Assembly: GCF_964194025.1 (NCBI RefSeq)
Contig: NC_134471.1
Coordinates: 50,716,001-50,780,000, forward strand
DNA from: Convolutriloba macropyga
Lineage: Eukaryota
Length of the DNA: 64,000 bases
Reading direction: 5' to 3'
Both the position numbers and the translations under genes were made by a program. This document shows positions 23,848 through 24,283 of this stretch, piece after piece (the first letter of the stretch is position 1; each line of letters starts with the position of its first letter). Under the pieces are notes generated by a model, which made no database searches, was not told the origin of the DNA, and worked only from the letters and a program-made list of their open reading frames with translations.

Positions 23848-24283
23848 TTAACAGCTTTCCGACCAAACGTCGTGAGGGTTGATCTTCTTCAGACAAATGG
23901 GGCAATTATGTTTATCTTGGGCACAGGGTTTGCACACAAAATGTCCAAGGTCCTGGTGACATTTTATGTGCGGGTGAGTTGAGGAGGTGACACATTTCTT
24001 TAGTTGATTGCAGCAGAAGCATCGGTAGTAAAAACTAATGGATACGGTGTAAATATGGCGGAGGCAAAGGGGGCAATTTGGTTGGGAAGAATGTTTGAAG
24101 AGGTTAGTTCTGCAATCAGTGCAAACTAGATGGGGGGGGTTGGTCTCCGTCCGAAGGGTGCAGTTTTTTCCAGCATGATGTAATTCGTAAACAAATGGGA
24201 CATTCATCACGATACTCGACAACAGGGGGGCGTGATGAATTTTGGAGGGGAAAAACTATTCGAAAGGAAAAACAATTTCCCAT
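23848..24283 (-). CDS. Tandem RING-finger protein with N-terminal MGNCFS motif (one frameshift in this copy)
   Basis: ATG at 24283 gives MGNCFSF...ECPICLRITSCW. A 1-nt shift in the A6 or C8 run (~24130-24170) joins HLVCTDC...CPLC and a second unit CFCC...C...H..CKPC...CPIC. Confidence 0.7.

Follow-up and report, generated by a model that had tools for sequence, protein, structure and literature searches.

A predicted N-myristoylated, double RING-type accessory gene in envelope-carrying Ty3/gypsy elements of Convolutriloba macropyga

Complex retroviruses and large DNA viruses typically carry accessory genes with which they subvert ubiquitination, and gypsy elements that carry an envelope gene are usually described as gag-pol-env only. 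Viral-style accessory RING proteins are known; the one described here lies in a retrotransposon. As far as the available portion of their description goes, the HSV/gB-type env "errantiviruses" (PMC13524379) share with our elements the gag-pol-env order, LTRs, a gB-type env, a multi-copy state, and an animal host (our genome has a Wnt gene), but the elements analyzed here are 18-19 kb long and hold about a dozen extra ORFs beyond gag, pol, and env. The available main text of that report makes no mention of RING, zinc finger, myristoyl, accessory, or ubiquitin, and the available part of its text supplements makes none of RING, zinc finger, accessory, or myristoyl.

The planarian element Burro (PMC6431247) is likewise a giant env-bearing gypsy element with ubiquitination and apoptosis cargo (AIR1, MATH-TRAF, BIR, BCL2, and Ubi/SUMO-like). 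In the accessible part of its description this cargo consists mostly of domains in one polyprotein, whereas the small gene described here stands alone, is duplicated, and belongs to a series of short ORFs that follows env. The sORF2 of MDG1-group elements (bioRxiv 10.1101/2025.03.14.642691) is also a small accessory ORF of gypsy elements with a predicted MGxxxS/T in some members; according to the accessible part of that preprint, however, it is a FAST-like transmembrane protein of env-less elements and has no zinc finger. On the accessible portions of both sources, Burro cargo (PMC6431247) and MDG1 sORF2 (bioRxiv 10.1101/2025.03.14.642691) are the nearest precedents. The accessible part of a study of bdelloid extra ORFs (PMC5408684) makes no mention of RING or ubiquitin, and we found no account of a myristoylated RING accessory gene of a retrotransposon in the literature covered, a scope that left Repbase and most subscription papers outside.

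Layout of the host element

The window, meaning the whole 64,000-nucleotide stretch of C. macropyga DNA that was analyzed, contains on its minus strand an 18.1-kb LTR element of Ty3/gypsy type with gag, pol, and a gB-type env. Its 5′ LTR (38132-39065) and 3′ LTR (20921-21855), both on the minus strand, are 99.7% identical over 935 nt. Between them, Pfam searches placed gag (33365-34657, minus strand; Retrotrans_gag with a CCHC knuckle and an N-terminus without Gly2) and pol (28578-33374, minus strand; PR, RT, RNase H, and IN, in the order PR-RT-RH-IN), the latter being in several broken pieces in the window copy. The 778-aa env ORF (25793-28129, minus strand) follows 3′ of pol and matches PF24664 (E 4.6e-42), which we take to be the gB-type, or class III, env family. 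With this layout, the element fits the gB-type env-carrying gypsy elements of PMC13524379, insofar as the available portion of that source describes them. Since the RING gene lies within an LTR element with gag, pol, and env, the earlier proposal that it is retrotransposon-encoded holds. We regard the family of the window copy, family A, as young because 4 of 10 other copies (each taken at 20 kb) keep long, unbroken gag, pol, and env frames.

Six small ORFs of 88, 65, 76, 78, 78, and 88 aa form a chain after env (24285-25698, minus strand), which makes the RING gene (23848-24283, minus strand) the seventh ORF after env. The stop-start gaps along the chain are +1, -28, -1, +3, and +2, followed by +1 to the RING ATG. 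The equivalent junction, just ahead of the first RING gene, is a 1-nt overlap in family C and a gap of 16 nt in family B. A Pfam search with the six small ORFs returned nothing above cut-off, and many of the chain ORFs appear to be paralogues of one 75-90 aa domain. An operon-like chain of 6-7 small ORFs, with several TAATG-type overlaps, was also seen at loci L031-L033 and L051-L053.

Further ORFs flank this core. Four small ORFs lie 5′ of gag (34816-36027, minus strand), with a dN/dS of 0.15-0.41 in the three that were compared, and ORFs resembling them also lie 5′ of gag in families B and C. The last accessory ORF (22374-23345, minus strand; 323 aa) combines a stretch rich in Gln and His with a C-terminal region that resembles a coiled coil. 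It is conserved across families, with homologues in the other families and a dN/dS of 0.09-0.15, and its Pfam search gave nothing above cut-off.

Reading frame, selection, and relatives

The preliminary description had proposed a hidden gene in the window that starts with MGNCFS from an ATG 1 nt past the previous stop and encodes a first CPIC, and this was confirmed in the sequence. The ATG at 24283 lies 1 nt past the stop of the upstream 88-aa ORF, which ends at 24285, and the first frame encodes MGNCFS (24266-24283, minus strand) and the first CPIC pair before stopping after 55 aa. The remainder of the RING protein lies in a second frame (24255-23848). One RING-like Cys/His pattern was found in the window versus none in 100 shuffles.

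Sister copies bore out the claim that the two frames join into one protein. For this comparison we took the 30 best loci, the window copy among them, out of 40 scored matches, which came from 131 candidates in the 1.18-Gb assembly. An unbroken ORF of 144/145 aa runs from the same ATG in 17 of the 29 sisters of the window copy. Another 10 are cut short at various sites, some of them identical to the site in the window copy, and the last 2 were missed by the start pattern used, yet both read as stop-free frames.

The window copy departs from its sisters at a G-run (24132-24139), where two other sisters break as well. Of the two homopolymers named earlier for a check against sister copies, it is therefore the C8 run (~24132-24139) that holds the break; the A6 run (~24164-24169) was rejected as the break point. 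Four public sequencing runs from one study each have a high-depth contig that likewise differs from the window at the G-run. The window copy carries 13 private indels, 8 of which fall in runs of at least 5 (such runs make up 7% of positions), and indel counts in four other copies range from 3 to 14. Because the break sites differ from copy to copy and most sisters read in one frame, programmed frameshifting was ruled out; the break in the window copy is either decay, meaning a real mutation, or an error of the assembly. ORF callers overlook genes of this class because they are short and broken at homopolymers.

We compared two subfamilies with ~89% DNA identity over the RING region. All 16 cross-subfamily pairs gave a dN/dS of 0.09-0.12 for the RING gene (Fisher p no higher than 2.3e-10; the pairs are not independent). 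For comparison, env gave 0.10 (one pair), gag gave 0.14-0.16 (two pairs), and an off-frame ORF inside gag, taken as a control, gave 0.55-1.56. The RING gene is a functional, conserved accessory gene of the element under purifying selection, and the earlier claim of a real tandem zinc-finger gene is upheld by a dN/dS of ~0.10, like that of env.

Protein searches of the genome recovered two further high-copy families whose RT is ~75% identical to that of family A. Family A has one RING gene, family B has two tandem RING paralogues, and family C has three, with a within-family pN/pS of 0.17-0.28 for the three family C paralogues. Families A, B, and C have in common the order env, small-ORF chain, RING gene(s), and last ORF, and in three decayed loci the RING gene(s) likewise have the small-ORF chain on one side and the last ORF on the other. 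If the gene were cargo captured passively, or a chance ORF with no function for the element, the truncation of the window copy and of 10 among its 29 sisters would be accounted for. The selection data largely refute this explanation, and the retention of position and ligands across families so diverged in RT also speaks against it; we give it almost no credence. Fragments of the RING gene were also seen at 1.5-2 kb spacing (G000:C13:29923037-29925418, C5:65750742-65755406, and C8:50169021-50175234), suggesting tandem arrays that stem from the 3′ region of the element.

A search of 1.84 billion representatives yielded 27 matches at E<=0.001, among which the outside lineages P0036, P0040, P0045, and P0046 share 33-37% identity. 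None of the database members that were read has a protein name. No close match was found in the C. macropyga genome for P0040 (E 1e-12), P0046 (E 1e-25), or P0049 (E 1e-20), and P0043 is present in that genome. Relatives of the RING gene occur in other assemblies. Scans of viral contigs for relatives confirmed nothing; the single metagenome match, L071, was rejected as an unrelated 406-aa ORF, and annotated phage records gave no match to the RING protein. No host donor RING was found among 30 of the 61 PF13920 loci in the host genome.

Zinc ligands and predicted fold

To assign ligands, we used an 18-row alignment of 9 genome copies and 9 database proteins, in which the database rows were not pre-filtered for the ligand pattern. 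Domain 1 (24064-24202, minus strand), which spans the frame break, has the ligands C28, C31, H42, H51, C54, C57, C70, and C73, and domain 2 (23893-24021, minus strand) has C88, C91, H105, H109, C117, C120, C127, and C130, so that each forms a C2H2C4 set. In domain 2, H105 is conserved in 17/17 rows, H109 in 16/17, and all six Cys in 17/17. The same ligands emerge from a 22-row alignment, whose rows were pre-filtered for that pattern. The C-x2-C-x5-C start that had been noted for both RINGs is literally present, but its third Cys (C37 or C97) occurs in just 2 of 17 aligned homologues, both from family A. We rejected C37 and C97 as ligands since they are not conserved and His fill ligand positions 3 and 4. 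H114 is found in 4 of 16 homologues. Domain 1 has 7-8 residues between His3 and His4, and domain 2 has 3.

According to the available portion of PMC6372010, the C2H2C4 ligand order is unique to Mdm2/Mdm4 RINGs. Both domains here have the same order as MDM2/MDMX (C,C,H,H,C,C,C,C), and the profile aligns with MDM2 over its RING and tail (E 0.011-0.3). In contrast to MDM2/MDMX, the protein has two such domains per chain, each with its own His3-His4 spacing, and in contrast to MDM2 it is 144 aa long without p53-binding, acidic, or RanBP2 domains (no such Pfam match). The protein is no more similar to MDM2 than to RNF4, TRIM32, and BRCA1 or to C3HC4 RINGs, and we found no C2H2C4 host RING among 30 of 61 PF13920 matches. 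Because MDM2 is no closer than other RINGs and these 30 host loci hold no C2H2C4 RING, it is plausible that the ligand set arose by convergence with MDM2. It would represent a second, tandem use of a rare C2H2C4 ligand set.

Upon AlphaFold2 modeling of a natural unbroken copy, we obtained a pLDDT of 70.2 with the first 24 residues disordered. Nearly all of the top 50 VIA-align matches were RING/U-box proteins aligned over residues 16-95, the best with a Z of 5.6 (rmsd 5.0, 69 residues aligned), and a human CTLH chain superimposed with an rmsd of 1.8 over 57 residues. A Z below 8 can reflect a common arrangement. All of the fold scores are modest, and Foldseek gave no match at E<=0.001, although its lists were dominated by RING proteins. 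The best PDB sequence matches of the profile were RNF4, TRIM32, MDM2, and BRCA1 (E 4.5e-5 to 0.01). Pfam zf-C3HC4_3 was matched by 19 of 22 members (best E 7.4e-7), and the query protein fell below the Pfam cut-off (18 bits versus 27). We predict from these models and profiles that domain 1 adopts a RING fold.

Domain 2 modeled alone gave a pLDDT of 74.8, with its H-x3-H on a predicted helix. Its best structural match was HPV E7 CR3 (Z 3.5, rmsd 4.0, 45 residues aligned), and its matches to RING/U-box structures had a Z of 2.0-2.6. The domain 2 profile matches domain 1 with a probability of 94% and a host RING with an E of 6.6e-5 (at an assumed 20,000 sequences). The tandem RING of the preliminary description was thus supported by profiles and models in its first half, and the models leave the second half better described as RING-like.

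Most of the top viral fold matches were viral RING E3s (herpesvirus ICP0, baculovirus PE38/CG30, and giant-virus RING proteins), of which the best was ICP0 at E 4.3e-3. RING clusters of Nucleocytoviricota reached an ESM Atlas score of 0.90, and P0047 (532 aa) matches domain 1 and the linker with a probability of 94%. A link to giant-virus RING proteins is possible, as a lead only. Unlike the gene described here, those E3s are encoded by large DNA viruses, and the matches are all weak or at the level of a lead.

N-terminus, ligase hallmarks, and expression

We compared N-termini across 12 lineages with a usable N-terminus, leaving out P0049 (partial) and P0038 (variant start). Gly2 is present in seven (A, B2, C1, C3, P0036, P0040, and P0045) and missing in five (B1, C2, P0043, P0046, and P0048), several of which have hydrophobic N-termini instead. 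Five of the seven Gly2 lineages also have Ser/Thr at residue 6, completing MGxxx[ST]; the other N-terminal residues are unalignable. Within families the motif is found in 28/29, 16/16, 15/16, and 17/17 loci. Among 148 other ORFs, MG occurs in 6 and MGxxx[ST] in 1, and the myristoylation motif that had been noted from MGNCFS is therefore kept across diverged paralogues far beyond chance. The RING protein is predicted from this motif to be N-myristoylated at Gly2. Gly2 lies on both sides of the midpoint root of a tree of 14 proteins, which is too poorly resolved (3 of 11 inner branches well supported) to place the origin of Gly2. Palmitoylation at the adjacent Cys (Cys4) had also been suggested. 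A Cys within residues 2-10 together with the Gly motif occurs only in family A and one outside lineage, and we rejected palmitoylation as a family trait since the Cys is not kept among the Gly2 lineages.

The same N-terminus bears on an arenavirus-Z-like role, also raised earlier, in which the RING protein would act as a matrix or budding factor, supplying the membrane anchor missing from Gag and linking capsid to env. Z is likewise small, and its N-terminal myristoylation signal followed by a RING resembles the Gly2 and RING layout here, as far as the accessible part of PMC3509680 describes it. In addition, Gag of the element begins with MANIVA and has no Gly2. The similarity in sequence is weak (ESM Atlas 0.88; PDB profile E 0.15 and 7.4; Pfam zf-P11 at E 0.058 in 1 of 22), and no significant sequence link to Z was found. 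However, Z has a single C3HC4 RING and late domains (PMC3509680, accessible part), whereas our protein has two C2H2C4 domains. A scan of 23 proteins found neither PTAP/PSAP nor PPxY in any of them; family A lacks YxxL, which has no shared position in the other proteins. Because no late domain is conserved, and late domains are listed among the conserved features of Z in the accessible part of PMC3509680, Z-like budding is unlikely. The variable number of one to three diverged paralogues, placed after six small ORFs, would also be unlike an abundant structural protein, and we consider this role as a whole quite unlikely.

To assess ligase hallmarks, we examined positions 30, 61, and 71, which we take from known RING-E2 structures to be E2-contact sites. 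In domain 1, position 30 is Ile/Val in 15/17 rows, position 61 is hydrophobic in 18/18 (Trp in 3), and Pro71 is present in 18/18. Domain 2 keeps the Pro, and its other two E2-contact positions vary. No conserved Arg linchpin was found in either domain in the 18- and 17-row counts: the residue after Cys8 is Arg in 2/18 rows for domain 1 and in 1/17 for domain 2, and it is Leu in family A. The linchpin residue modulates how active an E3 is and differs from one active E3 to another, XIAP being active with Tyr (PMC12326332, in the portion available), and a missing Arg therefore weakens the case for ligase activity while remaining compatible with it. A complex prediction of residues 22-144 with a host intronless Ubc13-like E2 scored 0.07 (mark 0.34) in a run made without alignments or folded controls, and favored neither binding nor its absence.

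Taking the locus as a whole, we propose that this env-carrying, errantivirus-like Ty3/gypsy family has a conserved accessory gene, broken in the window copy, whose predicted N-myristoylated product may well be a membrane-tethered RING ligase, or ligase module, that acts against host proteins; we consider this full reading an even call. The product could instead be an adaptor or decoy, a RING protein anchored to the membrane that is not itself a ligase. It would then bind a host E2, E3, or signaling protein or keep it sequestered, in the manner of MDMX, or else connect the env tail with some other factor. The lack of a linchpin Arg, with that position variable in both domains, points this way, as do the poor E2-contact positions and atypical fold of domain 2. 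Domain 1, on the other hand, keeps its three hydrophobic E2-contact positions across homologues that are 25-40% identical. This is what an active E2 site would show, but the same positions would also be retained in a decoy. We view an adaptor or decoy as possible, if somewhat unlikely.

More doubtful still is a zinc-finger regulator of the element's RNA, translation, or transcription, for which the Gly2 motif would be secondary. A conserved basic K-K-L-H patch precedes His42 (K40 in 17/18), Gly2 is missing from 5 of 12 lineages, and the helical H-x3-H of domain 2 would suit such a protein; yet the fold and profile matches of domain 1 are mostly to RING/U-box proteins of the ubiquitin system, and Gly2 is kept far above background. 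We regard a regulator as improbable.

Under the membrane-tethered ligase reading, predicted myristoylation of Gly2 would hold the RING protein at a cellular membrane, where domain 1 could bind a host E2 through the Ile before C2, the helix Leu/Trp, and the CP residues. Domain 2 might then serve as a built-in partner RING or as a substrate-binding module. The target of ubiquitination would be a host membrane or defense protein that limits the element, and duplication to one to three diverged paralogues per element may reflect changing targets. A selected, duplicated RING family in multi-copy elements points to a protein-level host defense beyond piRNA silencing, and a partner pull-down with the RING protein would offer a direct handle on that defense.

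Stop-start coupling along a polycistronic 3′ region would presumably allow translation of the RING ORF, unless a processed subgenomic RNA serves as its template. Five of the upstream small ORFs were comparable between subfamilies and are under purifying selection (dN/dS 0.04-0.16), and we consider the post-env chain to be probably translated for this reason, by reinitiation or from processed RNAs. A UGGGA motif of the calicivirus reinitiation type lies upstream of just one of six coupled starts, and an acceptor-like pattern was present at one of six.

A short hydrophobic ORF with a predicted single transmembrane segment (23740-23844, minus strand) starts 3 nt past the RING stop. This ORF of 32-34 aa is in frame just past the stop in most family A copies, where stop readthrough would yield a RING-transmembrane fusion. 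Its length differs between subfamilies and hence provides no comparable pairs for dN/dS. Families B and C also have hydrophobic ORFs after a RING gene, and L066, alone among 15 family C loci, shows a fusion of the hydrophobic ORF with the RING ORF that comes next.

A broader and rather unlikely extension of the ligase reading is that these elements, independently of lentiviruses, evolved a complex-retrovirus toolkit. Here, an operon-like stop-start gene chain would end in duplicating, myristoylated, single-chain double-RING ligases that are paired with the adjacent transmembrane peptide and destroy host membrane or defense proteins. If true, this would amount to a transposon-encoded ubiquitin-ligase counter-defense.

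Lastly, several features lie outside the element. A BEL/Pao element adjoins it (39920-47460, minus strand) with 793-nt LTRs at 97.6% identity. An RT fragment at 15056-17566 (plus strand) with a weak GIY-YIG match is possibly Penelope-like, and an inverted repeat at 13897-13998 has 51-nt arms that are 90% complementary with no spacer. Elsewhere in the genome, several host genes, for E2 enzymes and Wnt, were matched along most of the gene without any interruption of the frame (G000:C7:27555906-27556316, C6:68329923-68330303, and C7:41548927-41549844), suggesting an intron-poor gene set in this 1.18-Gb animal genome.
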